Source: an uncultured Bacilli bacterium (lineage in GTDB: Bacteria; Bacillota_I; Bacilli_A; RF39; UBA660). Taken from it: a DNA stretch of 63,531 bases. The DNA is taken from the NCBI GenBank assembly GCA_947581835.1, contig CANPVV010000004.1, positions 1 through 63,531 on the forward strand. Reading direction: 5' to 3'. Under the pieces are notes generated by a model. That model saw only the letters and a list, made by a program, of their open reading frames with translations, ran no database searches and was not told the DNA's origin. The translations under genes and the position numbers were made by a program. Positions within the stretch are counted from its first letter, which is position 1. Every line of letters starts with the position of its first letter. Positions 18,222 through 37,679 of this stretch are shown in pieces.

Positions 18222-18324
18222 TTAATATCCTCCTACAATTAATAATTATAATAAAAATTGAGGAAAATTGCAATAAATTTGTTTAACTTGATGGGAATCT
18301 AAAGAAATATAAAAAGAAAAAGAG

Positions 18325-18792
18325 TTATAAGTAAGACTCAAACTCTTCTCGATTATGTTCTTCTGTTGCGTATAATCTATTAGCTAAATCAATAATTTCG
18401 GAATCTATTCCTTCTTTTTTTTCGTACATATTTAGTTTTTCTTTGATAGCGATAACACCTTTTTCGTTTCCTTCCATCATAAGTTTAACAATATTTTTAT
18501 CTTCTTTATTAATACTCATGAGCTCAGACATAACTTTACTAGATAATTTTTGGATAGCACTGATCTCTTCTTCTTTAGCACCATATTTAGATAATAATTT
18601 TTTTGCATCATTACAAAATTCTTCATATTCTTCTCTTTGTTCTTTGATTAGATGGCTAATTTCTTCATCTTCTACTTTTTTCATAACACAGTCAATTCCA
18701 ATTAAACCCATTTCAGCATTTTGATAGATTAAATTTAAAAATTCAATGTTTTCTTCTTTTGATACTTTTTTTGTTTCGTTTTCTTTTTCCAT
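18325..18792 (-). CDS. Helical E/K-rich protein, function unknown
   Basis: Clean 155-aa ORF. No motif recognised. Confidence 0.55.
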   Translation of the reverse strand: MEKENETKKVSKEENIEFLNLIYQNAEMGLIGIDCVMKKVEDEEISHLIKEQREEYEEFCNDAKKLLSKYGAKEEEISAIQKLSSKVMSELMSINKEDKNIVKLMMEGNEKGVIAIKEKLNMYEKKEGIDSEIIDLANRLYATEEHNREEFESYL

Positions 18793-18845
18793 AAAAATTC
18801 ACCCATTTTTATTATGAGTGATTTTTTTATTTTTATACTTGTTAT

Positions 18846-20480: not shown

Positions 20481-20610
20481 ACTAATCACTCCATTTCAAA
20501 ATATAGATAAATAAAAAAAGTTCTAAGGCTTTTTTAATTATATCAAAAAACGGGAATAGTTGCAAGTACTCTAAAAAAGTATAATAAAAAGAAAATGAGA
20601 AAGGAGTTTT

Positions 20611-20856
20611 TTAATCATATAATCCTCCATATTTTGCTAATAATTTTTTATATAAAGATTCAGACATAGTACCATTTATAACATATTTTTTAGCATTCAT
20701 TTCAAGCTCATCAAATTTTAAATCATAAAAGAACCAGTCTCTTGCAGCATGAAATTTTTCTAATTCTTCAATTTCTTCTAAAACACTTTTGGGAAGTTTA
20801 GATAAATCTATCTCTATACTTCTGTCTATCATTTCATGAAATAAGTCTTTGTCCAT
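20611..20856 (-). CDS. Small acidic protein, function unknown
   Basis: 81-aa ORF with a GGAGGTGA RBS, directly upstream of the RNase J2-like gene. Confidence 0.5.
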   Translation of the reverse strand: MDKDLFHEMIDRSIEIDLSKLPKSVLEEIEELEKFHAARDWFFYDLKFDELEMNAKKYVINGTMSESLYKKLLAKYGGLYD

Positions 20857-20939
20857 AATGTCACCTCCTTAATAGTTATTTTTATATTATCAAAAATGAG
20901 CAAAGATTTATTTAATCTTTACTCACGTAATATATTAAA

Positions 20940-20992
20940 AGGCCGTAAAGGGTTGGCCTCTTGCCCATATATGATATAGCAATATGGGCAAG
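20940..20992 (-). terminator. Tandem hairpins terminating the 653-aa secreted-protein gene
   Basis: An 11-bp perfect stem CTTGCCCATAT/ATATGGGCAAG (20960-70 with 20982-92) is followed on the minus strand by GGCC-loop-GGCC plus TTTT (20940-59). Confidence 0.55.
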
Positions 20993-21020
20993 AATTACTA
21001 AAAAGCAAATAATAATTCTA

Positions 21021-22982: not shown

Positions 22983-23046
22983 CTAACTTTCTTACCCTTC
23001 TATCATAGAAATTTCTAGTTTATAAATAAATTATAGTACATGATAT

Positions 23047-23072
23047 GTCAAAAGTCAATAAAAAAGTCAATA
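23047..23072. promoter_or_regulatory. GTCAA direct repeats in the divergent promoter region
   Basis: GTCAA occurs at 23047, 23054 and 23066. The 10-mer AAAGTCAATA is repeated at 23051-60 and 23063-72. These resemble the GTCGAA repeats downstream of both regulator genes. Confidence 0.3.
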
Positions 23073-23132
23073 TTTCGGCAATATTATTTTTAAAAATAAA
23101 AATCATGAGAAAATGAATTTTAGGTGATTACT

Positions 23133-23588
23133 ATGTATTATAAGAAAAGACTAAATGAAATAAGAACTTTAAATGATATAAGTCAAAAAAAACTAGCTCA
23201 AATGTTAAATATTTCACCTTACACTTATAGTCATTATGAAACTGAAGATACCATTATACCTTTAAAACATTTAGTTACTCTTTGCAATTACTTTAATGTA
23301 TCTTTAGATTACATTTTTAATTTTAATAATATTGAAAATTACCCTAATTCTAAAAAAGAATTGGACTTAAATCTTGCAAGTACAAGATTAAAAGAATTTA
23401 GAAAAGAAAATAATTTAACTCAAAAAGAACTCGCTAACAAATTAAATGTTGCAAGAACTATTATAACTGAATATGAAAAAGCTCATTATTTAATTTCACT
23501 TCATGCTTTATATACTATTTGTAAAACTTATAAAATATCAGCTGATTATTTATTAGGAAGAATTGATAAACCTAAGTATTTAGAGTAA
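23133..23588 (+). CDS. XRE-family regulator with two tandem HTH domains (module 1)
   Basis: Two HTH_3-like units (ISQKKLAQMLNISPYTYSHYE... and LTQKELANKLNVARTIITEYE...). The start follows AGGTGA. Confidence 0.85.
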   Translation: MYYKKRLNEIRTLNDISQKKLAQMLNISPYTYSHYETEDTIIPLKHLVTLCNYFNVSLDYIFNFNNIENYPNSKKELDLNLASTRLKEFRKENNLTQKELANKLNVARTIITEYEKAHYLISLHALYTICKTYKISADYLLGRIDKPKYLE

Positions 23589-23605
23589 TGTCGAATTTTG
23601 TCGAA
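23589..23605 (+). promoter_or_regulatory. Candidate operator: TGTCGAA-N3-TGTCGAA direct repeat (module 1)
   Basis: Two heptamers lie in 10-bp register, 16 nt upstream of the -35 box. An identical element sits at 24443-24459. Confidence 0.4.
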
Positions 23606-23614
23606 CGATTTTTC

Positions 23615-23642
23615 TTGATTATTTTTATTTATTATTTATAAT
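23615..23642 (+). promoter_or_regulatory. Sigma-A-like promoter TTGATT-N16-TATAAT (module 1 small-ORF RNA)
   Basis: The hexamers were read directly. The predicted start (~23649-23651) coincides with the 5' arm of the closing helix. Confidence 0.5.
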
Positions 23643-23650
23643 AGTTTTTC

Positions 23651-23901
23651 GAGCGTTAGGACTTGCGTCTACTAATTCTGACATATTTATTGCCTCCCTT
23701 ACAAAACTTCTTAGGGGGTTTTGGAGAAAGGAATGATATGAATTTATTAGTCTTTTTAAAAGCAATTTTATTTAAGATAATTGGTTTATTTTCGGATAAA
23801 CCAAAAAAGGCGCAAACACCAATCATTATTATTGTGAGTAACAGTAATAATGTTAGTGTAAGCGTTTCTCCAAAAGAGTAGACGTTTTGCTCCTAACGCT
23901 C
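23651..23901 (+). other. Structured ~251-nt RNA domain closed by 5'-3' pairing, containing a small ORF (module 1)
   Basis: GAGCGTTAGGA (23651-61) pairs with TCCTAACGCTC (23891-901). CGTCTAC (23666-72) pairs with GTAGACG (23878-84). Confidence 0.5.
23738..23881 (+). CDS. Small hydrophobic peptide, 47 aa (module 1)
   Basis: The SD GGAGAAAGG lies 6 nt upstream of the ATG. The peptide is MNLLVFLKAILFKIIGLFSDKPKKAQTPIIIIVSNSNNVSVSVSPKE. The 72-aa track ORF is an in-frame extension lacking an RBS. Confidence 0.4.
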   Translation: MNLLVFLKAILFKIIGLFSDKPKKAQTPIIIIVSNSNNVSVSVSPKE

Positions 23902-23989
23902 TACTAATTTGATTTTAACATAATATTTTTAAATATACAATTATTTTTTATTAATTTAAAAATATAACTTGCTTTTTGTGGTGATATAA

Positions 23990-24442
23990 ATGATTTATAA
24001 TAATTTAAGGAAAATTAGGGAAAGAATTGGTATTTTGCAACAAGAAATTGCGAATAATTTAGGAGTTACAAAATCGGCTTATTGTAGATATGAAAACGAG
24101 ATGGATATTATACCTCTTAAGCATTTAATTAAAGTTACTAAAATTTTAAATGTTTCAATTGATTATGTATTTGATTTTACAAACAATTTGCAATATAAAA
24201 ATATATCTTCAGAAGTAGATTTAGTTAATAGTGGAAAAAGGCTTAAAGATTTTAGAAAAGAAATGGGATTAACGCAAAAACAATTATCTGAAGAATTAAA
24301 TGTAGCTCGCTCTATATTTTATTTATATGAAAGTGGTAAATATTTAATATCTACACATTTATTATATGATATATGTAAAAGATACAAAATATCAGCTGAT
24401 TATTTATTAGGAAGAATCGATAAACCTAAGTATTTAGAGTAG
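23990..24442 (+). CDS. XRE-family regulator with two tandem HTH domains (module 2)
   Basis: Paralogue of 23133-23588. The last ~19 codons are nearly identical at the nucleotide level, while the rest has diverged. Confidence 0.85.
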   Translation: MIYNNLRKIRERIGILQQEIANNLGVTKSAYCRYENEMDIIPLKHLIKVTKILNVSIDYVFDFTNNLQYKNISSEVDLVNSGKRLKDFRKEMGLTQKQLSEELNVARSIFYLYESGKYLISTHLLYDICKRYKISADYLLGRIDKPKYLE

Positions 24443-24459
24443 TGTCGAATTTTGTCGAA
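24443..24459 (+). promoter_or_regulatory. Candidate operator: TGTCGAA-N3-TGTCGAA direct repeat (module 2)
   Basis: Same sequence and same 16-nt distance to the -35 box as in module 1. Confidence 0.4.
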
Positions 24460-24468
24460 CGAAATTTC

Positions 24469-24497
24469 TTGATTAAAGGTTTTTTTAATTTTAGAAT
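24469..24497 (+). promoter_or_regulatory. Sigma-A-like promoter TTGATT-N17-TAGAAT (module 2 small-ORF RNA)
   Basis: The hexamers were read directly. The predicted start lies next to the 5' arm at 24506. Confidence 0.45.
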
Positions 24498-24505
24498 AAA
24501 TACTT

Positions 24506-24759
24506 GAACATTTAAGGCGAAGTGCCTACTTTAGTGTTTTCCTTTCCAAACTATCCTTTACTGAGATTTCAGGGGGTTAGATTTTGTAAAGGAGGTACTT
24601 AAAGTTATGTTAAAAGTAATTTTAACATTATATGTTGTTACAACAAGTGTTGTAACAATAGAAAAGACACTTTTCTTTATCAACATGAATATACACATTG
24701 ACATTAAGATAAGTGTCAACAAAAAGTAATTTTTGTAGGCATTTAGTCCTTAAATGTTC
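24506..24759 (+). other. Structured ~254-nt RNA domain closed by 5'-3' pairing, containing a small ORF (module 2)
   Basis: GAACATTTAAGG (24506-17) pairs with CCTTAAATGTTC (24748-59). TGCCTAC (24523-29) pairs with GTAGGCA (24735-41). There is also an internal perfect 10-bp hairpin at 24635-44 with 24649-58. Confidence 0.5.
24607..24729 (+). CDS. Small hydrophobic peptide, 40 aa (module 2)
   Basis: The SD AAAGGAGG lies 9 nt upstream of the ATG. The peptide is MLKVILTLYVVTTSVVTIEKTLFFINMNIHIDIKISVNKK. It falls below the ORF-track size cut-off. Confidence 0.4.
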   Translation: MLKVILTLYVVTTSVVTIEKTLFFINMNIHIDIKISVNKK

Positions 24760-24809
24760 TACAATTTAAGTTTAACATAATATTTTTAAATATACAATTA
24801 TTTTTTTAG

Positions 24810-25610
24810 TTAATTTAGTTTGATATTGTTATTTTCTTCTTTAATTATTTCACTTAAATAAGATAGTTCTAAACCTTTATAATTTATTTCTTTGATTAAC
24901 ATTTTGACATCTATTAAATTAGCATTTTTAGATATTAAAATAATACTACCGCTGTTTAATTCTTTTTTGATATCAATATAGTTAGTGCTAGTTAATATAA
25001 GAGGTTCTACTAAGTAATTATGATATTTTTGACATATATTAAATAAAGAAGGATTTAAAACACAGATATTTTTATTTTCTTTATTTATATTTAGATCATT
25101 TTCTAATTCTTTAAAGTTTTTTAAATCATTGTTTAAGGGTTCAAAATAGTTATTTTTGTGATATGTATTTTTGGTTACTAATAAAGAGGATTTTAGATTG
25201 TTATCTTTTAAATAGGTACTTATTGTATTTTCTTCTTCTAATATAAGACTTACTTTATTTAGTTTGGGATTACCTTTTATGATTATTTTATCTTTATTAT
25301 TTTCTAAAGAAATATCGGGTTTTACTTGATTAAAGATAAGAAAATATTTATTAAAAACGTCTAATTCATGCATTTTATAGAATGAATCTTTAAGATTTAC
25401 TTCAAGACCATTTAATCCTGGTATGATATATTCACCTTCAATTATAGCATTAACACTTTTTAATTCATATTCATCCTTCTTTTCTTTTATTTCTTGCATT
25501 AAAGGATTTTTATTTAAAACAATACTTGCGATTTGTTCAGTGTAATAAAAACTAAAAACCATAATTAAAGAGAGACCTAAATATTTATAAAACTTTTTCA
25601 AATTAGTCAC
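24810..25610 (-). CDS. Membrane-anchored protein, function unknown
   Basis: 266 aa with an N-terminal TM helix. No catalytic motif recognised. Confidence 0.55.
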   Translation of the reverse strand: MTNLKKFYKYLGLSLIMVFSFYYTEQIASIVLNKNPLMQEIKEKKDEYELKSVNAIIEGEYIIPGLNGLEVNLKDSFYKMHELDVFNKYFLIFNQVKPDISLENNKDKIIIKGNPKLNKVSLILEEENTISTYLKDNNLKSSLLVTKNTYHKNNYFEPLNNDLKNFKELENDLNINKENKNICVLNPSLFNICQKYHNYLVEPLILTSTNYIDIKKELNSGSIILISKNANLIDVKMLIKEINYKGLELSYLSEIIKEENNNIKLN

Positions 25611-25650
25611 CTAAAAAATTATATGCAAAAAAAATTAGCTAAAAACTAGT

Positions 25651-26010
25651 TTAGCCAATTTCTTTTTTAATTAGATCAGCTCCTCTTTTAGGATCTTGCA
25701 AAAGTATTTCATATACCATTCTATTTTTCTTAAGTTCATCAATAAAGATTATTTCTTCGCGAGTCATTTGAACATATTGCTCTTCTTTTTTATTATCGCT
25801 TATCTTAATCAAATAGTCGGCTCCTAAAAGATAATCCGCACTTACACCAAAGACGTGTATCATCTCGATAACTGCTTCTAAAGTTGGATTTCGTGTCTCT
25901 TTTTCATAACAGCATATAGCTGATTTACCGACACCGATTAACTCTCCTAATTCTGTCTGTGTTAAACCTTTTTGTTTCCTGACCTCTCTTAGTCTTGCAC
26001 CGTTTAACAT
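25651..26010 (-). CDS. XRE-family HTH transcriptional regulator
   Basis: LREVRKQKGLTQTELGELIGVGKSAICCYEKE is a classic HTH_3 sequence. Confidence 0.85.
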   Translation of the reverse strand: MLNGARLREVRKQKGLTQTELGELIGVGKSAICCYEKETRNPTLEAVIEMIHVFGVSADYLLGADYLIKISDNKKEEQYVQMTREEIIFIDELKKNRMVYEILLQDPKRGADLIKKEIG

Positions 26011-26135
26011 CTTCCCATCACCCTCGTTTTCATAAACAGATTATAACTTTAGTTAGCAATTATTTGTAAATTTTCCACCTATGGTAAAAAATACATAGTA
26101 TTTTTGACAAAATATCAATATTATTGAGTATTTTA

Positions 26136-26462
26136 TTAAGACTTAGGGGTTGATGATATAAATGATACTTTATCTGCGATTACTTCAATTACTTGCTTTT
26201 TTTGGTTATCTTCTGTTTCGTATGTTCTTGATTGGAGCTTGCCTTTTACACCAAGGACATCGCCTTTATGACAATAATCTTTGGTAGCACTGGCTATGCC
26301 ATTCCATAAAACACATTTGATAAAATCAGCATCATAAATACCATCAGCATTTCGGTAATCTCTTGAGACGGCAATAGTAATAATTGTTCTTTTAGTTCCA
26401 TCAGTGTTTTCTTTTACTTCCGGATCTTTAGTTAATCTACCGACTAAGGTTACATTATTCAT
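26136..26462 (-). CDS. ssb: Single-stranded DNA-binding protein, short form lacking the acidic C-terminal tail (SsbB-like)
   Basis: OB-fold signature MNNVTLVGRLTKDPEV...FIKCVLWN...VKGKLQSRTYE. At 108 aa it has no DDxPF tail. Confidence 0.8.
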   Translation of the reverse strand: MNNVTLVGRLTKDPEVKENTDGTKRTIITIAVSRDYRNADGIYDADFIKCVLWNGIASATKDYCHKGDVLGVKGKLQSRTYETEDNQKKQVIEVIADKVSFISSTPKS

Positions 26463-26652
26463 GAATATTCCTCCTTCCTTACGAAGAATATAACATGAAT
26501 ATTTTGATGGAACAAAAACAGATTTTTAGGTTTCTTTATAGCAGAAATTTATAAATCTGCTAGCAAATTTTAATAAATCTGCTAAGCTAATTTTATCATT
26601 TTGGAAAATTTTATATTTATGTGTAAACTTTACATTTCTTAACATTCCTTTT

Positions 26653-27948
26653 TTAACATTCTTTTAAAAGACGATTTAATTCTACAGCATATTCTAAAGG
26701 TAGTTCATGTTTGAAATCTTTAATAAAACCCATCACTAATAATTCTTTAGCAAGAGATTCACTTAAACCTTTACTCATTAAATAAAATAATTGTTCTGCG
26801 TTTACTTTAGAGATAGTGGCCTCATGTTCTATGGTTGATGAGCTATTACTTAGAATATTGTTGGGAATAGTATCGCTTTTACTTTTATTGTCTAAAATTA
26901 TGGTGTCACATTTAATGGTGGCTTTAGAATTAGTGGCATTTTTAGTAATTTTAGTGGTACCACGATAAGTACTTAGGCCCCCATTTACCGAAATAGATTT
27001 ACTTACAATATTACTTTTAGTATTTTTGCCTAAATGAATCATTTTTGCTCCAGCATCTAAGATTTGGTTTTCATTAGCATAAGCAATACTAATCGAATTA
27101 CCCCGTGAATTATCTCCTTTTAAGATACAGCTTGGATATTTCATAGTTATTTTAGAGCCAATATTACCATCAATCCATTCCATTAGACCGGATTCTTCAA
27201 CTATGGCTCGTTTAGTTACTAAATTATATACATCTTTGCTCCAATTTTGGATAGTGGAATATTTACATTTAGCGTGTTTTCCCACATAGATTTCAACTAC
27301 TCCGGCATGTAAGCTTGTAGAAGAATAACTTTTAGCAGTACAGCCTTCGATATATTCTAGTTCAGCATAATCATCAACAATAATTATAGTATGTTCAAAT
27401 TGACCAAGAGATGCACTTTCAATACGAAAATAACTTTGCAAAGGTCTATCTAATTTAGTATGTTTAGGTATATAGATAAAAGAACCCCCACTCCAGAAAG
27501 CACAGTTTAGGGCAGTATATTTATTTTCTGAATATTTAACTAGATTATTAAAATACTTTTTAAATAGATCAGGATATTTTTTTAAAGCTTCATCAGTACT
27601 GGTAAAAATTACTTTACTTTCTTTATCCTTAATATTATGGTAGACTACTTCACTTTCATATTGGTTGGTAACTCCATATAAATATTCTTGTTCTGCTTTT
27701 ACAACACCAAGATCACAAAAGGTATTGCGAATATTGTTATCAACTTTGTTCCAATCATCGGTTAATTTATTTTCATTGTCTTTATAGTAGGTTATAGCTT
27801 TAAAATCAATGTCTAATTTAGGACCAAAAGTAGGATTATTAAAAGTATTGAAGGTTTCTAAAGACTTTAGTCTAAAGTCTAATACCCATTTTGGTTCATT
27901 TTTTTTCTTGCTTAAATCTATAACATATTTTTTGTCTATTTCTTGCAT
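26653..27948 (-). CDS. sufB: Fe-S cluster assembly protein SufB
   Basis: SufB-type blocks include FWSGGSFIYIPK, YIEGCTA, HLGKNTKSNI, IEHEATISKV and LPLEYAVELNRLL. No sufC/D/S/U lies adjacent. Confidence 0.85.
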   Translation of the reverse strand: MQEIDKKYVIDLSKKKNEPKWVLDFRLKSLETFNTFNNPTFGPKLDIDFKAITYYKDNENKLTDDWNKVDNNIRNTFCDLGVVKAEQEYLYGVTNQYESEVVYHNIKDKESKVIFTSTDEALKKYPDLFKKYFNNLVKYSENKYTALNCAFWSGGSFIYIPKHTKLDRPLQSYFRIESASLGQFEHTIIIVDDYAELEYIEGCTAKSYSSTSLHAGVVEIYVGKHAKCKYSTIQNWSKDVYNLVTKRAIVEESGLMEWIDGNIGSKITMKYPSCILKGDNSRGNSISIAYANENQILDAGAKMIHLGKNTKSNIVSKSISVNGGLSTYRGTTKITKNATNSKATIKCDTIILDNKSKSDTIPNNILSNSSSTIEHEATISKVNAEQLFYLMSKGLSESLAKELLVMGFIKDFKHELPLEYAVELNRLLKEC

Positions 27949-28075
27949 ATTTATCCCCAAAGAGTATTATACTACATTATTTTTTATTTGTTTAGTATAT
28001 TTTTTAAATGTTTAGAGTTGTTTTTTAGATATTTTTTTGATAAAATTATAGATAGTAAATAATTGGAGGGATATT

Positions 28076-28777
28076 ATGAGTGATACAGATTTAAGTAAAA
28101 GTAAAATAATTAATATTAATGATTTTATATTTCGACAAAATTTAGAATTTTATCCGAATTTAAGTAGTTTGATATGTGAAAATAATATTTTATATCTAAA
28201 AAAAGATAATAAGATAGTTGATAATGTAGCTCTTACTTTTGATTTGAGAACTCTTCCGGGTGAATCATGGAATGTAACTCCAGAAAATTTTTTAAATATT
28301 ATTCGTTTAAATAAAGAGTGTGCGAATTTATATAAGTTTGGGGAATTTATGAGGGGTCATGCACATGAAAAATTTTTAGATAATAATGAGGCAATGCGAC
28401 AGATAATTGAGAAATTTATGCGAACTTATTTTATTGCAAAAGATAGTACAAATTTAACAGAAAATAATAAAATATTGTTAAGTCAGGCAGAATTTGTTAT
28501 TTCATCTTTACCAGATGACTCGGATATGAAAAAAATTATTAATGAAATAATTGATAAAGAGTTTGATAATACTAAAATGATGGGAAATACAAAGAGTTTG
28601 GCAGTTGCTGATTCATTAAAACAGCAAGGACAAGCCCCAGTTAGAGCACTTACTTTGGTTAAAAAAGAGGAATATCCTTTGGCAAGTAATAATAAAGCAG
28701 CTTTTATAAATATTGCAATATTACTATATGGAATTGTTAATGTCGGTTTAATTATGGCAATAGCTTTAATGAAATAG
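28076..28777 (+). CDS. Tail-anchored membrane protein, function unknown
   Basis: 233 aa with a single C-terminal TM helix (AAFINIAILLYGIVNVGLIMAIALM). Confidence 0.55.
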   Translation: MSDTDLSKSKIININDFIFRQNLEFYPNLSSLICENNILYLKKDNKIVDNVALTFDLRTLPGESWNVTPENFLNIIRLNKECANLYKFGEFMRGHAHEKFLDNNEAMRQIIEKFMRTYFIAKDSTNLTENNKILLSQAEFVISSLPDDSDMKKIINEIIDKEFDNTKMMGNTKSLAVADSLKQQGQAPVRALTLVKKEEYPLASNNKAAFINIAILLYGIVNVGLIMAIALMK

Positions 28778-28798
28778 TTACGGTTTGTAACTTTTTTC
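28776..28798 (+). terminator. Rho-independent terminator
   Basis: AGTTAC-ggttt-GTAACT followed by TTTTTT. Confidence 0.6.
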
Positions 28799-28896
28799 TT
28801 GGATAAATTTTTAGTTAGTTAAATAGTAAAAAGTAAAATGTTATTTGTAATAAATACTTTTTTTAATTAATAGCAAGATGATATGCAAATTTTTGT

Positions 28897-28925
28897 TTGC
28901 ATTAAAAGTTATTTTATGATATAAT
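28897..28925 (+). promoter_or_regulatory. tmRNA promoter TTGCAT-N17-TATAAT
   Basis: The hexamers were read directly. The mature 5' GGGG begins 10 nt downstream. Confidence 0.6.
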
Positions 28926-28935
28926 TTGAGTATAT

Positions 28936-29304
28936 GGGGTAGCCTATTGGTTTCGACATATATTACTAAATATGACGGCAAGTGGGAGTGACACCTTAAG
29001 TCTAAATTTAAAATTAAATGACAAGAATGAAAGTTCTTTTGCTTCAAATGCTTTTGCATTTGCCTAGTTTAATAAGGATATAGCAAGCTTCTATTTAATT
29101 TGCTTATAGGTTATTTAGGGGTTCATAGATATAAGATATATTATTTTATTTGATTAGGATAAAGTAATGAATTTTTACTAATCTAGTTATTTTATAGGTT
29201 GGTCCTTGAGCCAGTAGAATAATGAATTTTAAATCAGGCTAAACTTGTAGATGTTGTATTATAGGATATATTGGACAGGAGTTCGATTCTCCTCTACTCC
29301 ACCA
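28936..29304 (+). ncRNA. ssrA: Transfer-messenger RNA
   Basis: The 5' GGGGTAGC... pairs with the 3' ...CTACTCCACCA acceptor. A T-arm GGAGTTCGATTCTCC is present. The tag reading frame at 29020-29067 encodes DKNESSFASNAFAFA*. The minus-strand ORF 28841-29059 is spurious. Confidence 0.93.
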
Positions 29305-29330
29305 TTTTTGATTATCAAACTCGGACTTTT
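29304..29330. repeat. att-like direct repeat, copy 1 (tmRNA 3' end / terminator 5' half)
   Basis: The 27-nt ATTTTTGATTATCAAACTCGGACTTTT is repeated exactly at 29946-29972. Confidence 0.7.
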
Positions 29331-29460
29331 GTAGTTCGAGTTTTATAAAGTTTGAAATTTTGATATAATATTTATGATTTTAATTGATATATATGTCAAT
29401 TTAGAAACACACTAGTATATTGTCAAAAACAATATATTGCATAAAAAGAGAGGAAACAAA

Positions 29461-29901
29461 ATGATTATTAATAAATTTTTACAAATATTTTCAGAAGAAT
29501 ATATAAATTCTAAATCTATTGATAAATTACTAGGATTTACTAAAAAAACGTTACCTTCAGATGGAACTGATAAAATTTTTGTTGGATGTGTGATAATAAT
29601 GTTTGATCTAGGATTTACTGGTCCAGCATCCTGTCATGAATATCTATCTTCTATTGTTAAATCTGGAAAGGAAAAAGTAGGTAATACTAATTTATTGTAT
29701 TTTTATGTCAATCGAATTAATACAAATAAAATGGTTGCAAAATATTTAAAAAATATTAATCGAGACTTAAATTTTGAGAAACATATAGATTCAGTTATTG
29801 AATATTTAGAACAATTTTCTTTTGATTTTAGTGCAAAAATAAAAAGTGTTTATGATAAAAAATTAAATGATACAACAATTAATAAAGGTGTAATAGATTA
29901 A
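29461..29901 (+). CDS. Hypothetical protein carried between the att-like repeats
   Basis: The ATG at 29461 follows AGAGAGGA. No motif recognised. Confidence 0.5.
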   Translation: MIINKFLQIFSEEYINSKSIDKLLGFTKKTLPSDGTDKIFVGCVIIMFDLGFTGPASCHEYLSSIVKSGKEKVGNTNLLYFYVNRINTNKMVAKYLKNINRDLNFEKHIDSVIEYLEQFSFDFSAKIKSVYDKKLNDTTINKGVID

Positions 29902-29945
29902 TTTTAAGGTTATAAAGTTGTCGTACTCCTTCTTTAGGGTATACT

Positions 29946-29972
29946 ATTTTTGATTATCAAACTCGGACTTTT
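29946..29972. repeat. att-like direct repeat, copy 2
   Basis: Exact 27-nt copy of 29304-29330. It is preceded by TACTCC, a possible decayed copy of the tmRNA 3' stem. Confidence 0.7.
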
Positions 29973-30110
29973 TTATAAGTATCGAGAATAAATAGACAAT
30001 CAATTTTATATTAGGATTGATTTTTTGTTTAAAAAATGTTTTTTAAAGAAAGTCTTTCTTCAAAAAAGCTTGCATTTTAGCAATAAATAGTGTATATTAT
30101 TTATTGAGAT

Positions 30111-30202
30111 GTGCCTAGGAAACTTTTGAAGCCCTAGGTCTTTTTCATTTTATAGGAGGTAAAATGGCTAAAGAATTTAAATCAACTAATGAATTAATAG
30201 AA
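30111..30202 (+). repeat. Leader plus first 13 codons of the Abi gene (copy 1 of a direct repeat)
   Basis: GTGCCTAGGAAACTTTTGAAGCCCTAGGTCTTTTTCATTTTATAG...ATGGCTAAAGAATTTAAATCAAC...TTAATAGAA recurs at 31085-31174. Confidence 0.8.
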
Positions 30203-31051
30203 ATATTAAACTCAAAAGGTTTATTAATAAAAGATGAAAAGAATGTTAGATATTTAATTGAAAAATATTCTTATTATTCAATTATAAACTCTTATAAATG
30301 GATATTTAAAATAGGAGAAAATTATAAAGATAATGCTTCATTTGAAGAAATATTTGCAATGTATAAATTTGACAAGAATTTAAAAATAATAATGCTTAAA
30401 TATATTCTTGAGATAGAAGCAGTAATAAAAACTAAAATCGCTAATATATTTGCTCAAAAATATGGGTTAGAAGTCTATTTAAGTACTAATAACTTTGATT
30501 TAAAGGATGATGATTCTAACTTAGAGCACATAGAAAAACTAATAGAAGAGATTAAAAATGAAATTGATAAAGGAAATGGTAACCATGATGCAATAACTCA
30601 TTATATGAATAAATATGGATTTGTTCCACCTTGGGTTGTTACTAAAATATTATCTCTTGGGACTATTAGTAAGCTTTATGGTTTGATGAAGCAACAAGAT
30701 AGACAAGAAATTAGTAAGCAATTTCATATAAATGATAGAATATTAAAAAATATACTTGGTAATTTAACATCAGTTCGTAATATAGCAGCTCATGATGATA
30801 GATTATATACTTATAGAAGTACTTTCTATATCAGATTAGATAAAACAAAAAAATCTCCTGATAAAGCATTGCACACAAATATGTATATTATAATTAAATC
30901 TTTAGAATTATTATTAGAAAGTGGTCAAGCAATTGAAATGAAGAATTTAATTATAAATGAATTAGATATGTTAAAAGATAGTTTGACATCAATTACTATT
31001 GAAGAAGTATTAAAAGTAATGGGTTTTGATAAGGATTATTATATTGTATAA
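30164..31051 (+). CDS. Abi_2 (AbiD/AbiF-like) abortive-infection family protein
   Basis: The family pattern as I remember it: STNELIEILNSKGL, FDKNLKIIMLKYILEIE, PPWVVTKILSLGTISKLY, LTSVRNIAAHDDRLY. Confidence 0.8.
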   Translation: MAKEFKSTNELIEILNSKGLLIKDEKNVRYLIEKYSYYSIINSYKWIFKIGENYKDNASFEEIFAMYKFDKNLKIIMLKYILEIEAVIKTKIANIFAQKYGLEVYLSTNNFDLKDDDSNLEHIEKLIEEIKNEIDKGNGNHDAITHYMNKYGFVPPWVVTKILSLGTISKLYGLMKQQDRQEISKQFHINDRILKNILGNLTSVRNIAAHDDRLYTYRSTFYIRLDKTKKSPDKALHTNMYIIIKSLELLLESGQAIEMKNLIINELDMLKDSLTSITIEEVLKVMGFDKDYYIV

Positions 31052-31084
31052 ATATCAATCTATTACATATAATATTATTGAAAA

Positions 31085-31189
31085 GTGCCTAGGAAACTTT
31101 TGAAGCCCTAGGTCTTTTTCATTTTATAGATAAAAATGGCGAAAGAATTTAAATCAACGAATGAATTAATAGAATTAGAAATAAAATGA
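31085..31189 (+). pseudogene. Truncated 5' remnant of a second Abi_2 gene
   Basis: This is a ~90-nt copy of the Abi leader and start. The SD is destroyed (TATAGATAAAAATG) and only 17 codons remain (MAKEFKSTNELIELEIK*). Confidence 0.65.
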
Positions 31190-31326
31190 TAAATTTTCAA
31201 AAAAAATTAATATGATAGACACTTATATAAAGATAGTGCTAGTTAACATTAAAAAATCATTTCATCTAGTTTACAATTATTAAAGTTTATTTTCTTATAA
31301 CACATCATAAATAGTTAATACACAGC

Positions 31327-31356
31327 TTGACAAGTATAATATCAAAAAGATATAAT
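31327..31356 (+). promoter_or_regulatory. Promoter TTGACA-N18-TATAAT
   Basis: Consensus hexamers lie ~60 nt upstream of the UDG-like gene. Confidence 0.55.
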
Positions 31357-31414
31357 ACAATTAGTTTTTATTGTACTAAATGGAATTAGATATGTATTTT
31401 AGAGGAGGGATAAT

Positions 31415-32056
31415 ATGTGTAGTAAACACCCAAAATGGGGAAAAAATGGGGAATTGTATTATATACCTAATAATGCAACTAAATTGATTATTGGCACAAT
31501 GCCTCCTTCTAAGTTATGTAATGGAAAAATAGATGATGAAAAATTTATTGATTTCTTTTATGGCTCTCCTGATAATTATTTTTGGAATATTATGAAATTT
31601 CTTGAAGATAATAAAGAAAAAAAATTGAAATATAAAGAATTAAATAAAGATAATAAATTTGATGATATAGCTAGTTGTAAAGATTTCTTAGAAAGCCATA
31701 ACATTGGTATTTTAGATATTGTTGAAAGTTGTATACATAATAATAATTCTGCAGCCGATAGTGATTTACTAAGTATCAAAGAAATTGATCTAGTGAAAAT
31801 TTTAAAAGAAAATAATAGTATAAAAGAAATATTTTGTACTAGTGAATATGCTAAAACTCTATTATGTGTTTATTATGCTAAATCTATTATTAAAGAAAAA
31901 GAAGATAAACATTATAAGATAAGTTTTAGTGAAAAAGATAAATCTTTGTATTATGATTTATTTATATTATATTCTCCTACTAGAAGAATATTTAATAGAT
32001 ATCAAGATAATAAAGAAGTATACTTAAAAAATTATCTTAAACTTATTGAAAAATAA
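31415..32056 (+). CDS. Uracil-DNA glycosylase superfamily protein (deoxyinosine/hypoxanthine glycosylase-like)
   Basis: LIIGTMPPS...FFYGSPDNYFWNIM and GILDIVESC...AADSDL resemble the family-6 HDG pattern (LILGSFPS...YY.HP.N.FW; D...C.R.GS.DS). Confidence 0.55.
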   Translation: MCSKHPKWGKNGELYYIPNNATKLIIGTMPPSKLCNGKIDDEKFIDFFYGSPDNYFWNIMKFLEDNKEKKLKYKELNKDNKFDDIASCKDFLESHNIGILDIVESCIHNNNSAADSDLLSIKEIDLVKILKENNSIKEIFCTSEYAKTLLCVYYAKSIIKEKEDKHYKISFSEKDKSLYYDLFILYSPTRRIFNRYQDNKEVYLKNYLKLIEK

Positions 32057-32199
32057 AGTATAATTATTTTAGGCATTTTTAAGTGCCTTTTTTATTATTT
32101 TAGTTATATTGATTTATTAGAGAGTAGTATAATGTCTATAATCGTTAAAAATTATTGAAAAAATATAAAGTATTATAAGTATGAAAGTAGGTATTAATA

Positions 32200-33237
32200 A
32201 TGTATGATGAATTAAATTTAGAGGCAAAAAATTATTTATTAAAAGAAGTAAATGATATTTTCTGTAAAAAATATGATGATGAAAAATTATTAGAAAGATG
32301 TTACAAAGAATTAGATTTACTATATGAGAAAGATTTACTTTTTATTATTGAATACTTATATAAATTTAAAAAGGTAAATAAAGATATTAAGTATTATTTT
32401 AGAGGTATGATAAACAATTTATTAATATTATATGTATTAGATATAAGTGTAGTAAATCCTTTAGAATATAATTTACCTTATGAGTTATTTACTGATAAAA
32501 CTATTACTGTTGATGTAACTAATAATTCAGATTTACAACTTGTTAGTTATTTAGATAAACAAAATGATAAATTTAAAATAGTTTATGGCTTTTTTATAAA
32601 AGATGAGATAGAAGATGTTAATTATTTGTTAGATAAACATTATTTATTATTACCATGTGGTTTTATCGATGAATTTATGTTATTAAGATTTAATGATTTA
32701 AATTTATTACAGACTATTAACGATTATAGGGAATATAAAAATACATATATGACTATAAGAATTGATAATAAACCTTATAATAAAAACAAGGAAATATGTC
32801 TCGATAATATTTTTTATAATAAAATAGAAAAAGAAGTAGCTAAAATTTTAAAACCTAAAACTATAAATGATTATATAAAAACTAAGAATATAGTCCATGG
32901 TGTTGATGTTTGGAATAATAACCAAGATATTTTATTTAAAGATAAAAAGATAAATTTAGATAATTTAATCGCTAGTCGTGAAGATATATTAGAGTATTTA
33001 TTGGATCATAAAATAGAAAGAAATATAGCCATAGAAATTACAATTTTTATTAGTTTAGGAAAAAGGAAGAAAGAACCTGATAAATGGAATGAATATGTTA
33101 GAGTGATGAAAAAATATAAATGTGAAGAAACATTTATAGATATTTTTTCTAAAATATTATTTGTTTTTGGAAGAGGTCAAGCAGTAAGTGAGTGTTTATA
33201 TGTTTTAGATAAAGATAATTATTTAAATATCAATTAG
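32200..33237 (+). CDS. Miniaturised, probably non-catalytic PolC (C-family DNA polymerase alpha)-like protein
   Basis: Two segments align by eye to PolC. [32 protein letters not shown] matches [35 protein letters not shown]...[10 protein letters not shown]...[14 protein letters not shown] matches HGTDVWLGNAQ.LI...CRDDIMVYL...KIKYMFPKAHAAAY. The protein is only 345 aa. Confidence 0.5.
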   Translation: [345 protein letters not shown]

Positions 33238-33378
33238 GTAAATTAAAATGAATTATATAAAAGAGCAGAAAAAATTTAGTTAGTTTTAATTATAAATTAA
33301 AAATAAATTTCTATATTGGCAAATAATCTTGATTTAATTAAATATTATAGTAAAATAATTATATTAAGAGGTTTAGTT

Positions 33379-36075
33379 ATGAAAAGAAATATTAAGTGTG
33401 ATAATTTAAAAGGTATATTGATTTTTTTAGTTGTTTTGGCGCATTTACTTTATTCTTTTAAATATTATAATAATAGTTTTAATGTTTTTATAACTTATTT
33501 TATTTATACTTTTCATATGCCTTTATTTTTAATAATATCAGGTATGTTTTCTCAAACAAAAGATAAAAAATCTCTTTTAAATATTTTATTATTGTTTATT
33601 TTGTTAAATTTAAGTTATATTTTGTTTGATTATCTTTTAACTGATAATTTAGAGTTTTTAGTTATTAAATATTCGGCTTGGTATTTAATTGCCCTTTTTA
33701 TTTATCGTTTAATTGTGTATTTTGATAAAAAAGATATTATAAAAAAGTATAGAATACCTTTTTTGGTTAGTTTATTTATTGTAACAAATTTAATTAGTTT
33801 GTTTAATTTAGATTATTTTAACCGGATAATTAGTTATTCTTTCTTTTTCTTTTTTGGGTATTTGATTAATCCGCAGGAGTTAAAATTATCAAAAAAAGTT
33901 AGTATAGTTGCTTTAATTGGTTGTTTTTTACTTCTCTTTAAAATTGCTAGTTTTAAGTTAGGTCTTAATTTTTTTATGGCTTATCCAGTATTAAATTGGG
34001 GATATTTAATTTTAAGAATTATTATTTATTTAATTGATATTGTTTTATTTGTTTCTATGTATAATCTTATTAGTGATAAAAAAATTCCTTTAATTAGTAC
34101 ATGGGGAGAAAATTCTTTAGGAATATATATATTTCACCGAATTATTACAATTATTATTACAGATACATTTATTAATAGTGTTTATTTTTATCCAGTTATA
34201 ATTATAGGAGCTATTTTAATTTGTTTCTTGTTTGGGAATAAGAAAATTAAAAGTTATTTAAAAAATACTAAATATATTATAATTACGATTACTACCCTTC
34301 TCTTTTTAATTGGCGTTAATTATTTTTATCATAATTATAGGTCTTTTATGAAGCCTAAATATATTAGTAGTGAAGAATATAAGGAAATAAGTAATAGTGT
34401 TTCATTAGGTTTTGTGGGAGATTTAATATTGTTAGAAAATCAGGTTAAAGATTCTTATAGGGAGGGAGAATATAATTTTGATTATATGTTTTCTTTAGTT
34501 AAAGATTATTTTAATGAGGTAGATTATATGATGGGTGTTTTAGAGGGGCCAGTAAGTGATAATAAACCTTATTCGGTGGGTAATTTTTCAGATAATAAAG
34601 TATTAAAGTTAAATTATCCTAGTAGTTTTATTGAAAGTATTAAAAATAGTGGGATTGATTTAGTTACTATTGCTAATAATCATATATTAGACCAAGATAT
34701 AGAAGGATTTAGAGATACAATAAATAATTTAGATAAATATAATTTGGAATATGTAGGAAGTAGAAATGAAAGAACAAAAATAATTAAGGTAAAAAATTTA
34801 AAAATTGGAGTACTTGCTTATACTTATGGTTTAAATTATCAAACAGAAGATAGTTTATTTAAAGATTTAAAAGTTACTAATTATATTGTACCTTCACAAA
34901 GTAAGTATTTTAAAGAAGTAAAGGAAGAAGTTACACAAGATTTTTTAGATTTAAAAAAAGAAAATGTAGATTTAATTGTGGTTTTACCGCATTATGGAAC
35001 ACAGTTTTTAACAAAAGCTGATGAAATGCAAAAGACTTGGAATAAAATATTTGCTAATTTAGGGGCAGATATTGTTTTAGGAAGTCATGCTCATTCAGTT
35101 CAACCTGTGGAATATATTGGAGATACTTTAGTATTTAATTGTGTAGGTAATTTTGTTAATTCTTATATAGAGCATGATGGCGATATTTCTTTTATTTCTA
35201 AAGTTTATATAAATCCGCAAACTAAAAAGGTTATTGGAGGTGGGATTATTCCTTTGCTTGCCGTTAAAGATAAAAATTTGGGGTATTATGCACTTCCGAT
35301 TTATAAAAATTATAATATTTTAGAGGAATATAAAGATAAAATGGCTTATGCGAATAGTTTAGTAACTAAAGTGGGATTAGGACAGAATATTGGAATTAAT
35401 GAGATGGAAGAAGAGTATTATATTTTTAAAGATGGATATAAAAAACATTTAAAAAATGATTTAACTTTAACAAGTAAAGATAAGATAAGTAATATGTATC
35501 AAACTATAGATAAAGGGCAAAATATTTGTTTTATTGGAGATAGTATTACAGAAGGAACTAAAAATGGATATGTTCCTTGGTACAAACCTTTAATGGAATT
35601 ATTTAAAGATAAACAGGTTTATAATTATTCTAAAGGTGGTTATACGTCTAAGGATATTATAGATAATTTTCAGGATAAATTAGCAAATTCTTTATGTGAT
35701 GTGGCAATTATTAATATTGGAACTAATGATATTCGTTATAGTGAGATAAAAAAAGAAGAATATATAGAGAATATAAATAAAATAATAGATTTTTTAAATA
35801 ATAAAGAGATAGTTCTTTTAGCTCCTTTTAGGACTACTGAGCAAGATAGGTATTTAAAAGTTGATGCTGAAAATAAAAGATTTTTGTATGAGGAATATGA
35901 CGAAGAGTTAAAAAAGATAGCTTTAAGTAAGAGTAATGTTTCTTTTATTGATATTAATAGTTATATAGCAAAAGTATTAAAGGAAGATGGAGAAGATTTA
36001 TTTTTATTAGATGGAGTTCATCCGAATAATGGTTATGGAGTTTTATTATATTCTTATGCTTCAATGCGAGAATAA
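33379..36075 (+). CDS. Three-domain fusion: acyltransferase-3 membrane domain + CapA/PGA_cap metallophosphatase-like domain + SGNH/GDSL hydrolase
   Basis: The N-terminus has KCDNLKGILIFLVVLAHLL plus ~10 TM helices. The middle has GFVGDLIL, IANNHILDQ, LPHYGTQF, GSHAHSVQPVE. The C-terminus has FIGDSITEGT, GTNDIR, DGVHPN. Confidence 0.75.
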   Translation: MKRNIKCDNLKGILIFLVVLAHLLYSFKYYNNSFNVFITYFIYTFHMPLFLIISGMFSQTKDKKSLLNILLLFILLNLSYILFDYLLTDNLEFLVIKYSAWYLIALFIYRLIVYFDKKDIIKKYRIPFLVSLFIVTNLISLFNLDYFNRIISYSFFFFFGYLINPQELKLSKKVSIVALIGCFLLLFKIASFKLGLNFFMAYPVLNWGYLILRIIIYLIDIVLFVSMYNLISDKKIPLISTWGENSLGIYIFHRIITIIITDTFINSVYFYPVIIIGAILICFLFGNKKIKSYLKNTKYIIITITTLLFLIGVNYFYHNYRSFMKPKYISSEEYKEISNSVSLGFVGDLILLENQVKDSYREGEYNFDYMFSLVKDYFNEVDYMMGVLEGPVSDNKPYSVGNFSDNKVLKLNYPSSFIESIKNSGIDLVTIANNHILDQDIEGFRDTINNLDKYNLEYVGSRNERTKIIKVKNLKIGVLAYTYGLNYQTEDSLFKDLKVTNYIVPSQSKYFKEVKEEVTQDFLDLKKENVDLIVVLPHYGTQFLTKADEMQKTWNKIFANLGADIVLGSHAHSVQPVEYIGDTLVFNCVGNFVNSYIEHDGDISFISKVYINPQTKKVIGGGIIPLLAVKDKNLGYYALPIYKNYNILEEYKDKMAYANSLVTKVGLGQNIGINEMEEEYYIFKDGYKKHLKNDLTLTSKDKISNMYQTIDKGQNICFIGDSITEGTKNGYVPWYKPLMELFKDKQVYNYSKGGYTSKDIIDNFQDKLANSLCDVAIINIGTNDIRYSEIKKEEYIENINKIIDFLNNKEIVLLAPFRTTEQDRYLKVDAENKRFLYEEYDEELKKIALSKSNVSFIDINSYIAKVLKEDGEDLFLLDGVHPNNGYGVLLYSYASMRE

Positions 36076-37032: not shown

Positions 37033-37416
37033 GTGAAAAGAGTGAGAGAATTAATTTTAAGAAAATGTAATAATTGTGGGGCTTTGGTTAAAGTGATAAG
37101 TGATTGTAAGTGTACTTGTGGTATTAATTGTTGTGATAAAGAAATGAAGATAGTAAAAGCTAATAGTGAGGAAGCTAGTTTTGAAAAACATATTCCTAGT
37201 TATGAAATAAGGAATGATAAAATTATAGTTAATGTTAATCATGTGATGGAAGAAGAACATTTTATAAATTGGATTATGTTTGTTGGAGAAAATAGTGAAG
37301 AAATTATTTATTTTAACCCAATGGAAGATGCTAAAGCAGAATTTAAAAAGCAAAAAGGAATTTTGTATGCTTATTGTAATAAACATGGCTTATGGAGTTG
37401 TGAGGTTACTTATTAA
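37033..37416 (+). CDS. dfx: Desulfoferrodoxin-type superoxide reductase
   Basis: The N-terminal Cys cluster is CNNCG...CC. Centre II ligands are visible in EKHIP, NHVMEEEH and YCNKHGLW. Confidence 0.8.
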   Translation: MKRVRELILRKCNNCGALVKVISDCKCTCGINCCDKEMKIVKANSEEASFEKHIPSYEIRNDKIIVNVNHVMEEEHFINWIMFVGENSEEIIYFNPMEDAKAEFKKQKGILYAYCNKHGLWSCEVTY

Positions 37417-37603: not shown

Positions 37604-37679
37604 TGGCTGCCCCAGTAGGATTCGAACCTACGGAATCGAAGGGTCAGAGCCTTCTGCCTTACCGCTTGGCTATGGGGCA
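37604..37679 (-). tRNA. tRNA-Gln (anticodon CUG)
   Basis: The reverse complement is TGCCCCATAGCCAAGCGGTAAGGCAGAAGGCTCTGACCCTTCGATTCCGTAGGTTCGAATCCTACTGGGGCAGCCA. It has a U1-A72 pair, anticodon loop CTCTGAC and an encoded CCA, and closely parallels E. coli tRNA-Gln. Confidence 0.9.

Follow-up and report, generated by a model that had tools for sequence, protein, structure and literature searches.

A miniaturised and very probably catalytically inactive homologue of the replicative polymerase PolC in variable islands of gut Bacillota

The window analysed here is a stretch of 63,531 nucleotides from an uncultured Bacilli bacterium (assembly GCA_947581835.1, contig CANPVV010000004.1, positions 1 to 63,531). 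At 32200..33237 on its forward strand lies an open reading frame (ORF), termed mini-PolC in the following, which encodes a 345-residue homologue of the replicative polymerase PolC. The ORF starts with ATG, ends with TAG, has a GC content of 19.5% and encodes a protein with a pI of 5.4. Its frame is closed upstream by an in-frame TAG at 32188, 9 nt 5' of the ATG, and the adjoining genes, an upstream gene resembling the uracil-DNA glycosylase (UDG) superfamily and a downstream gene for a 919-residue acyltransferase/PGA_cap/GDSL protein, are both unrelated to polC. The ORF is therefore no piece of a longer polC gene, in agreement with the original prediction, made by eye from the sequence, which had described it as intact. 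A ribosome-binding-site-like GAAAGTAGG precedes the ATG and a TATAAT is located at 32129-32134, both recognised by eye. Between the UDG-like gene and mini-PolC, a pattern scan detected a terminator-like hairpin on the forward strand (32071..32088), which suggests that the mini-PolC gene forms its own transcription unit. A promoter scan of the AT-rich DNA of the window yielded 64 sites versus 69 expected; the only perfect consensus promoter, of the sigma-70 type (TTGACA-18-TATAAT, 31327-31356), is situated in front of the UDG-like gene.

The mini-PolC gene is located in an 8.3-kb AT-rich variable island, whose left boundary is formed by ssrA (tmRNA; 28936..29304, forward strand) and whose right boundary is formed by tRNA-Gln(CTG) (37604..37679, reverse strand), both detected with ARAGORN. 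The accessory position proposed originally is thus confirmed. The GC content amounts to 22% within the island and to 27.6% outside of it. The same flanks (SufB side, tmRNA, tRNA-Gln and prs) are found around the closest relative, L001, from a rabbit-gut metagenome-assembled genome (MAG) labelled 'uncultured Bacilli bacterium', whose mini-PolC protein is 90% identical. In L001 the island consists of three genes, encoding a 219-residue protein of a recurrent partner family named c17, mini-PolC, and a 215-residue ATPase restricted to the DnaB C-terminal domain. The sole island stretch common to the window and L001 extends from 32152 to 33260 (forward strand; blastn, 89.8% nucleotide identity) and comprises the mini-PolC gene flanked by 48 nt on its 5' side and 23 nt on its 3' side. 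In the window, mini-PolC is a stand-alone single-gene cassette in a hot-spot island; a tblastn search of the window for DnaB_C-like, DnaA-like and c17 partners revealed none, the sole match being the chromosomal dnaB at about 57.6-59.0 kb.

Two regions of the protein, which had previously been aligned with PolC by eye, give significant matches to PolC. Residues 22-100 match positions 12-96 of the 260 positions of Pfam family PF07733 (DNA_pol3_alpha) with E=2e-5 and 24.8 bits, compared with a gathering cut-off of 23.9. For residues ~214-330, the two PolC equivalog models of NCBIfam are matched at positions 1167-1278 of their 1445 positions, with E-values between 3e-17 and 5e-17, and the PolC chains 3f2b and 9qpc of the PDB are matched as well (E~4e-10). 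Profile-profile alignment of the mini-PolC family with PolC by hhalign results in a probability of 99.8% and E=6e-28, covering PolC positions 1173-1299 only. Within the whole 63.5-kb window, a PolC profile detects the mini-PolC ORF and nothing else. The Pfam, NCBIfam and hhalign matches, together with the structural comparison by Foldseek described below, place mini-PolC in the C-family DNA polymerase superfamily (PolIII alpha: PolC/DnaE). Moreover, both sequence and structure favour the PolC branch over the DnaE branch, with E=3e-17 to 5e-17 for the PolC equivalog models versus E=0.18 for the DnaE2 model, and with Foldseek values of E~1e-12 versus E~1e-7.

An AlphaFold2 model calculated from 42 family members (pLDDT 94.9, pTM 0.91) displays three N-terminal helices, β-strands at residues 64-68, 102-107, 125-129, 147-152, 162-172 and 184-190, and finger helices between residues 208 and 336. 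Comparison with the PDB by Foldseek returned C-family polymerases only, with E-values from 2.5e-12 to 8e-4. The top matches are PolC structures (3f2b with E=2.5e-12; 9qrl with a query-normalised TM-score of 0.76), followed by DnaE-type enzymes (2hpi, E=4e-7), and among viral models only phage PolIII-alpha-like proteins were found. The TM-scores of 0.71-0.76 obtained for PolC refer to the query length; accordingly, the chain follows the palm and fingers of PolC from end to end, its middle ~130 residues included. The model shows that the Pol-beta-like sheet of the palm is preserved in mini-PolC, as are the helices at the N-terminal end of the palm and some of the fingers. This revises the original prediction, according to which most of the palm is missing and the middle ~130 residues are a replacement: the palm sheet is present as a multi-stranded sheet over residues 61-190 that superposes on PolC and is not foreign, and the parts missing within it are the thumb and the catalytic residues.

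Along the gene, all segments of which are given for the forward strand, the N-terminal palm segment (residues 22-100, 32263..32499) contains three helices, the first palm strand and a helix-loop, and was assigned by the PF07733 match and by near-invariant residues. It is followed by the strand matching the catalytic PDIDLNF of PolC (TITVDVTNN, residues 101-109, 32500..32526), as defined by the bridging alignment described below and by strand 102-107 of the model. For the remainder of the reduced palm (residues 110-205, 32527..32814), AlphaFold secondary structure, superposition on PolC and a gap in the alignment reveal further strands, no thumb, and absence of the PolC motif KLDILGHD with the third Asp, in place of which the window protein reads MLLRFN. 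The finger segment (residues 207-337, 32818..33210), which carries the motif KPKT, is homologous to PolC ~1170-1304 according to hhalign and the NCBIfam PolC models. Alignment with PolC is robust only for the finger region and the DxD strand, and is uncertain in the middle of the palm. Upstream of the palm, the N-terminal domain, OB, PHP and exonuclease are absent; the chain begins at the N-terminal palm helices and a Pfam scan of mini-PolC gave no match for a PHP domain, so that the postulated loss of PHP and exonuclease holds. Within the palm the thumb is lacking (the PF07733 match ends at profile position 96/260), and the clamp-binding and duplex-binding domains found 3' of the FPKAH motif in PolC are likewise absent, since the protein ends ~10 residues past the FPKAH equivalent.

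In Enterococcus faecium PolC, the catalytic aspartates are D972 and D974, and the nucleobase/inhibitor pocket includes H1185, Y1274, F1276, H1280 and Y1284 (PMC12592400); the numbering of the matched PolC chain in the PDB is shifted by +22 relative to these residues. The corresponding positions were traced in a bridging alignment of 42 family members, intermediate relatives and seven cellular PolCs. PDIDLNF aligns with TITVDV of the window protein, which places Thr at both Asp positions. The two DxD columns are not conserved in the family either, being occupied mainly by Thr (19), Ser (5), Lys (5) and Glu (4) at the first position and by Asn (10), Asp (6), Ser (5) and Cys (4) at the second. 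In 41 of the 42 members the strand carrying the third carboxylate, KLDILGHD, is deleted. All three carboxylates are thus replaced or deleted, which bears out and extends the Asp loss noticed originally. Moreover, the phosphate-binding loop GSRGSVGSS is replaced by F-R-G-M-I-N-N, the two Asn of which are kept in 39/42 and 42/42 members, and no more than 10 of the 42 members have the Arg of the finger motif VRKG. Whereas the H1185 equivalent (in HGxDVW) is retained in 29/42 members, H1280 and Y1284 are changed to Gln and Glu, respectively, in mini-PolC (GRGQAVSE). None of the features of an active enzyme, namely three catalytic carboxylates and a dNTP-contacting GS loop, VRKG and FPKAHAxAY pocket, is therefore found in full. 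Due to the loss of the catalytic carboxylates and dNTP motifs, it is very unlikely, judging from the alignment, that mini-PolC is a polymerase.

In addition to the residues lost, a set of residues is near-invariant in the family: N72, N73, P87, Y90, Y94 and E95, as well as R325-G326-Q327 and E331. The conserved acidic residues E37, E95, E261 and D262 are all present in PolC too, outside of the active site. As far as the sequences can tell, the cleft is remodelled and then frozen rather than merely degraded. The inhibitor pocket of PolC, which is an antibiotic target (ibezapolstat class), is kept in part: the His of HGxDVW is present, and the positions of Y1274/F1276 hold an aromatic residue. 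The acidic pI and net charge are no indicator of DNA binding, because the palm-fingers region of PolC itself is equally acidic.

A search of 5.8 billion proteins identified 111 homologue clusters, nearly all of them 330-370 residues long and alignable over the full length with 34-90% identity. Between family genes, dN/dS (Nei-Gojobori) ranges from 0.08 to 0.2 at dS 0.35-1.4, and for the window gene and L001 a value of 0.144 is obtained. The term 'relic', used for this gene originally, hence does not apply to what is a length-stable, conserved family under strong purifying selection. Frameshifted or truncated members occur occasionally (L059, L038). In L059 (4486-8908) a Gabija pair, consisting of GajA (AAA_15 + OLD-TOPRIM) and the UvrD-like GajB, immediately precedes a frameshifted mini-PolC (243 + 59 residues), which is followed by a methylase and two DUF262-type genes; this locus shows that the gene decays now and then inside defence islands.

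Neither Pfam nor NCBIfam holds a dedicated model for mini-PolC, no source names these proteins, and a literature search revealed no paper on mini, truncated or inactivated PolC homologues. Two surveys of the C-family recognise only DnaE1-3 and PolC, one of them calling the PHP domain universal, and both dropped truncated sequences or fragments without an intact active site (PMC3919608, PMC12926913). It is because of this removal of truncated and active-site-less homologues that the family is undescribed. Taken together, there is little doubt that mini-PolC, as a miniaturised homologue of PolC, is functional yet catalytically inactive and represents an undescribed family on mobile or variable islands.

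Compared with PolC of Geobacillus kaustophilus (3F2B/3F2C) and Enterococcus faecium (9QPC/9QRN/9QRL), mini-PolC shares the palm helices, the Pol-beta-like sheet and the finger helices, together with the motifs LPYELF (PxxFERF-like), KPKT, HGxDVW and RDD/RED-I-x-x-YL. However, mini-PolC comprises ~345 residues versus ~1,440 in PolC, lacks the DnaQ exonuclease, the clamp-binding motif and the HhH duplex-binding domain, and is encoded by an accessory island gene, whereas polC is essential. An exhaustive HMMER scan of cluster representatives yielded 731 relatives at E<=1e-3, which form a continuum from the core family via palm+fingers-only proteins of 320-450 residues with mostly degraded DxD and short PolC proteins of 650-810 residues (PHP+palm+thumb+fingers, with PDIDLNF/KxDILGH intact in most) to cellular PolC. 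In the finger region, the distance of the mini family is 1.48 to short PolC and 1.61 to cellular PolC, values that are about equal given the long branch and saturated distances.

Like mini-PolC, the short PolC proteins (P0135, P0136, P0150, P0160; L065) are mobile-element-borne, encoded directly 3' of an HTH (helix-turn-helix) gene and near a recombinase, and they likewise lack OB, exonuclease and C-terminal domains. Unlike mini-PolC, most of them keep PHP, thumb, PDIDLNF/KxDILGH and FPKAH, the DxD being degraded in P0150; on the basis of these motifs, most are probably active polymerases. No description of short PolC proteins was found in the literature. Integrative mobilisable elements from the human gut, which also carry genes for a MobL relaxase and a tyrosine integrase, encode short PolC proteins of ~760 residues (L065 6204-8483, L066, L075). 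The order in the L065 type is HTH – short PolC – … – MobL relaxase – integrase, so that the slot downstream of the HTH gene is shared with mini-PolC. The ~760-residue short PolC may be a minimal element-encoded replicase. Palm+fingers-only proteins of 330-420 residues (P0129, P0138, P0146, P0148, P0162, P0164, P0165 and WP_013283140 of plasmid pCY186) resemble mini-PolC in the absence of PHP and thumb and in a mostly degraded DxD, are only 24-33% identical to the window protein, and have kept more of the motifs typical of PolC (FPKAH, WYKxHYP). They seem to form separate clades and possibly reflect independent inactivations.

The neighbourhoods of 49 core-family genes, representing 38 distinct contexts (L numbers), were surveyed in genome, metagenome and assembly collections; apart from plasmid records, these are metagenome contigs and MAGs, for which ORF calls are mechanical and element borders are not mapped. 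The commonest layout, observed in at least 10 contexts, is ~100-residue ORF – SSB (single-stranded DNA-binding protein) – c16 (140-168 residues) – XRE HTH – mini-PolC – cargo – serine resolvase. Here the cargo varies, consisting either of Type I restriction-modification (R-M) genes or of a methylase and DUF262/GmrSD-like genes. In 7 contexts a recombinase gene follows within +2 to +5 genes; SSB is encoded upstream in 12 contexts, and in 11 the gene directly 5' of mini-PolC specifies an XRE HTH protein. In the most abundant cluster, P0043, the order is SSB – PcfK – PcfJ – ORF – HTH – mini-PolC – DnaA-like AAA+ (234 residues) – tyrosine integrase, the island being inserted next to a truncated penicillin-binding protein gene. 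PcfJ and PcfK are, as we presume, associated with leading regions of elements. SSB, methylases and anti-defence genes are generally enriched in such regions (PMC11541004).

A second layout is an operon with the order (HTH) – mini-PolC – DnaB_C-only ATPase – c17 – c23 – (second mini-PolC) – c24. In some genomes two mini-PolC paralogues share one operon (L002, L014). Two-mini-PolC operons are located at L002 7992-10073, L014 5146-9481 and L019 639-6091 and encode, in addition, the DnaB-C-terminal-only ATPase, c17 (~220 residues), c23 (~160 residues) and c24 (~154 residues); L019 also encodes a 403-residue DnaB_C protein with a tail which by eye resembles DnaA domain IV. These operons may constitute a multi-gene system of pared-down replication proteins. 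For c17, the AlphaFold model has a pLDDT of 72 and gave no Foldseek match below E=0.1, and PDB sequence searches with c7 and c17 returned no match. Genes for DnaA-like AAA+ proteins adjoin mini-PolC in L007/8, L041 and L081.

In the L009 type, a two-gene insertion composed of a 196-residue protein and mini-PolC is situated between the housekeeping genes frr/GGDEF and YibE_F. The gene for the 196-residue protein (c7; L009 7337-7927; also in L010, L011, L028 and L030) always lies directly 5' of mini-PolC; by eye the protein displays PD…(14)…EIK, as in PD-(D/E)xK nucleases, and it has no match in Pfam, PADLOC or the PDB. Further contexts of mini-PolC include Fic…Macro, methylase-McrBC, GmrSD/DUF1810/DUF1848 and a NUDIX/NT5C/NERD/UDG island. 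L035 and L040 lie on the same contig (OLNW01000134.1) at mirror-image coordinates (14526-31542 and 63460-80476 of 95001) with identical genes; rather than a true duplication, they probably reflect a palindromic assembly or a single locus that was listed twice.

The sole cultured, annotated example is a distant member of 332 residues and ~26% identity, WP_013283140, on the megaplasmid pCY186 of Butyrivibrio proteoclasticus, where it is flanked by genes for an AAA ATPase on one side and a DnaA/Hda-family protein on the other, within a cluster reaching from dnaX to a full-length plasmid polC. Besides pCY186, no other annotated plasmid with a full-length mini-PolC was found. Distant mini-PolC clades are located on large element-like rumen/gut contigs (L060, L061, L062, L074; also L016). 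These contigs carry short housekeeping paralogues, namely FtsH-like AAA+/M41 proteins (~440-465 residues), an SRP54-type GTPase, an MraZ-like protein and a SpoVK-like AAA+ protein, and also hold RtcB, ADP-ribosylglycohydrolase, a WYL protein and an S-adenosylmethionine (SAM) lyase.

A mobile-element backbone is indicated by the linkage to recombinase and SSB genes, by PcfJ/PcfK together with an integrase, by the tmRNA/tRNA flanks and by the atypical GC content. Mini-PolC is thereby shown to be an accessory gene of variable, recombinase-associated islands of gut Bacillota. Of the phage or plasmid origin considered originally, the link to plasmid- and island-type mobile elements stands. A phage origin found no support: PHROGs gave no match, IMG/VR contained no confirmed relative, and matches in phage records were confined to the finger region (<=42% of the query) of full or short PolC genes. 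Mini-PolC as a known defence family was discarded as well, since PADLOC-DB v2 gave no match for mini-PolC or for the partners c7, c16, c17, c23, c24 and c29.

Retention of the fold without catalytic residues suggests, by analogy, that mini-PolC may have a binding or scaffolding role in a replication or repair assembly. The C-terminal half of Pol2 of eukaryotic Pol epsilon is a catalytically dead polymerase scaffold. Other dead polymerase paralogues acting as scaffolds are ImuB and the inactivated PolY in DnaE2 mutasomes (PMC12926913). These proteins resemble mini-PolC in that a polymerase fold is under selection after loss of the catalytic residues; however, they possess Y- or B-family folds and known partners, whereas mini-PolC belongs to the C-family, so that the likeness is functional only. 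Both surveys of the C-family are devoid of an inactivated C-family member (PMC3919608, PMC12926913).

Our preferred interpretation, to which we assign a probability of roughly 0.45, is that mini-PolC may serve mobile elements at their replication interface by mimicking the PolC core without catalytic activity. Acting as a binding module, it would work with the SSB of the element and with initiator/helicase-type ATPases (DnaA/DnaC-like AAA+, DnaB C-terminal RecA-like domain) and would recruit, couple or restrain the host replisome while the element replicates or establishes. The parallel would be the dead polymerase scaffolds ImuB and the C-terminal half of Pol epsilon. This interpretation is favoured because mini-PolC occupies a backbone-like position beside variable cargo, because SSB and initiator/helicase-type ATPases recur in its vicinity, down to the pCY186 cluster at ~25% identity, and because there is precedent for dead polymerase paralogues as scaffolds. 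Several points weigh against it. The mechanism is derived from gene context and analogy alone. No SSB, AAA+ or helicase-like partner is found near mini-PolC in the window, the L009 type, L082 and L084, and certain partner ATPase genes appear split or truncated. Given that the mini-PolC gene is all that L001 and the window share, the protein must be able to act alone. Within ~8 kb of the SSB–HTH–miniPolC modules, no conjugation genes (type IV secretion system, relaxase) were detected. Finally, many neighbours are defence genes (AbiD, Gabija, McrBC, GmrSD-like, R-M), with which a defence role fits equally well.

Such a role is the main rival interpretation, though we consider it doubtful on balance: mini-PolC could imitate the core of the replicative polymerase and thereby act as a decoy where phages, mobile elements and hosts are in conflict. 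It might be directed against phages or, conversely, help transferable islands to establish or to counter defence by plugging into the host replisome or shielding it. As an anti-phage or anti-plasmid decoy or sensor, an idea put forward originally, it would bind a phage factor aimed at host PolC, such as a helicase, a replisome organiser or a PolC inhibitor, and would titrate this factor or trigger effectors; mini-PolC, the DnaB-C-terminal-only proteins and the DnaA-like mini-ATPases would then form a set of pared-down replisome mimics. The window gene lies beside AbiD in a variable ssrA-adjacent island, and Gabija, McrBC, GmrSD-like, R-M, Fic and Macro genes occur near other members. The two-gene cassette with the 196-residue PD-(D/E)xK-like protein (by eye) between housekeeping genes is also in line with a decoy, as is the movement of mini-PolC as a stand-alone cassette in the manner of single-gene defence genes. 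However, PADLOC recognises neither mini-PolC nor its recurrent partners, no effector is consistently linked to it, and it lacks those domains of PolC for which contacts with clamp and tau are established or assumed. Moreover, purifying selection is strong, with no sign of arms-race divergence, and the constancy of mini-PolC beside variable defence cargo suggests that it is part of the backbone rather than of the cargo.

The remaining explanations are considerably less probable than a replication-interface mimic or a decoy. The XRE-family HTH gene (encoding 50-130 residues) located immediately upstream in 11 independent contexts, together with a mobile-island location typical of toxin–antitoxin (TA) modules, would fit a replication-blocking toxin of an XRE-type TA or abortive-infection pair, in which the HTH protein neutralises or represses a dominant-negative PolC fragment that stalls the replisome. 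We regard this as improbable, since the window and many other loci lack an HTH partner and an unneutralised toxin would not be tolerated; in addition, the HTH gene and mini-PolC are separated by a gap of ~60-140 nt, in contrast to the overlap usual for TA operons. We place equally little weight on a repurposed enzyme or small-molecule sensor, i.e. a nucleotidyltransferase or nucleotide binder with a Pol-beta-like palm and a relocated active site. The palm sheet and cleft-lining finger helices are kept and bear new near-invariant residues (NN 72-73, R325-G326-Q327, E331), and in 26/42 members an Asp or Glu is present two residues past the lost second Asp, on the same strand face. Yet there is no conserved acidic triad, with E37, E95, E261 and D262 being shared with PolC outside its active site, and both the phosphate-binding GS motif and the basic finger VRKG are lost. 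A decaying polC pseudogene fragment or an assembly artefact, as might be surmised from a length far below that of PolC, the missing catalytic residues and the few frameshifted or truncated members, has a probability close to nil. It was ruled out by the closed frame, which has a start codon and an RBS-like site of its own, is preceded by a stop and lies next to genes unrelated to polC, by the constant length across the clusters on independent contigs, by dN/dS values well under 1 and by the compact fold predicted with high pLDDT.

C-family polymerases have been viewed as large, essential and always PHP-containing, and the discarded homologues left a layer of diversity unseen. This layer includes widespread ~345-residue PolC derivatives of gut and rumen Bacillota, which are apparently dead, under purifying selection and mobile-element-borne, as well as related clades, among them apparently active short PolC proteins of ~700 residues on integrative mobilisable elements. 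If mini-PolC binds parts of the replisome, structural studies would gain a minimal PolC core of natural origin, the way in which islands or phages interface with the Gram-positive replisome would become accessible, and polymerase mimicry might prove to be a new principle of defence or anti-defence. Should the decoy interpretation be true, it would be a kind of system not previously described.

The island in the window contains further genes. AbiD (30164..31051; PADLOC, E=4e-58) shows no conserved linkage to mini-PolC. It is bracketed by direct repeats of ~100 nt (30101-30205 and 31075-31177, 93-96% identical), the second of which includes a truncated remnant, ~15 codons from the start of another AbiD-like gene (MAKEFKSTNELIEL…). 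Repeats and remnant suggest cassette replacement by recombination. Next to ssrA, two 33-nt direct repeats (29301-29333 and 29943-29975, 94% identical), the first of which begins at the ACCA 3' end of the tmRNA, enclose an ORF of 154 codons (29437..29901); they look like an att-type duplication resulting from insertion of a small cassette at ssrA.

The UDG-superfamily-like protein encoded upstream of mini-PolC (213 residues; 31415..32056, forward strand) matches TIGR04274 (hypoxanthine-DNA glycosylase) with E=1e-7, which is below the cut-off. A UDG-like homologue is found four genes upstream of mini-PolC in L003 and a PF03167 UDG three genes downstream in L084. As a partner of mini-PolC, the UDG-like gene of the window was dismissed on account of the terminator-like hairpin between them and of its absence from L001. 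Downstream of mini-PolC, the 919-residue protein (33316-36075, forward strand; likely true start ATG 33380) combines an Acyl_transf_3 membrane domain, a PGA_cap domain (capsule-synthesis/metallophosphatase-like) and a GDSL/SGNH hydrolase, and may be a cell-envelope-modifying enzyme inside the variable island. The island further contains an XRE regulator and a few small ORFs. Between this regulator and tRNA-Gln lies a Cys-rich ORF of 127 codons (37033-37416, forward strand), which by eye resembles desulfoferrodoxin/superoxide reductase.

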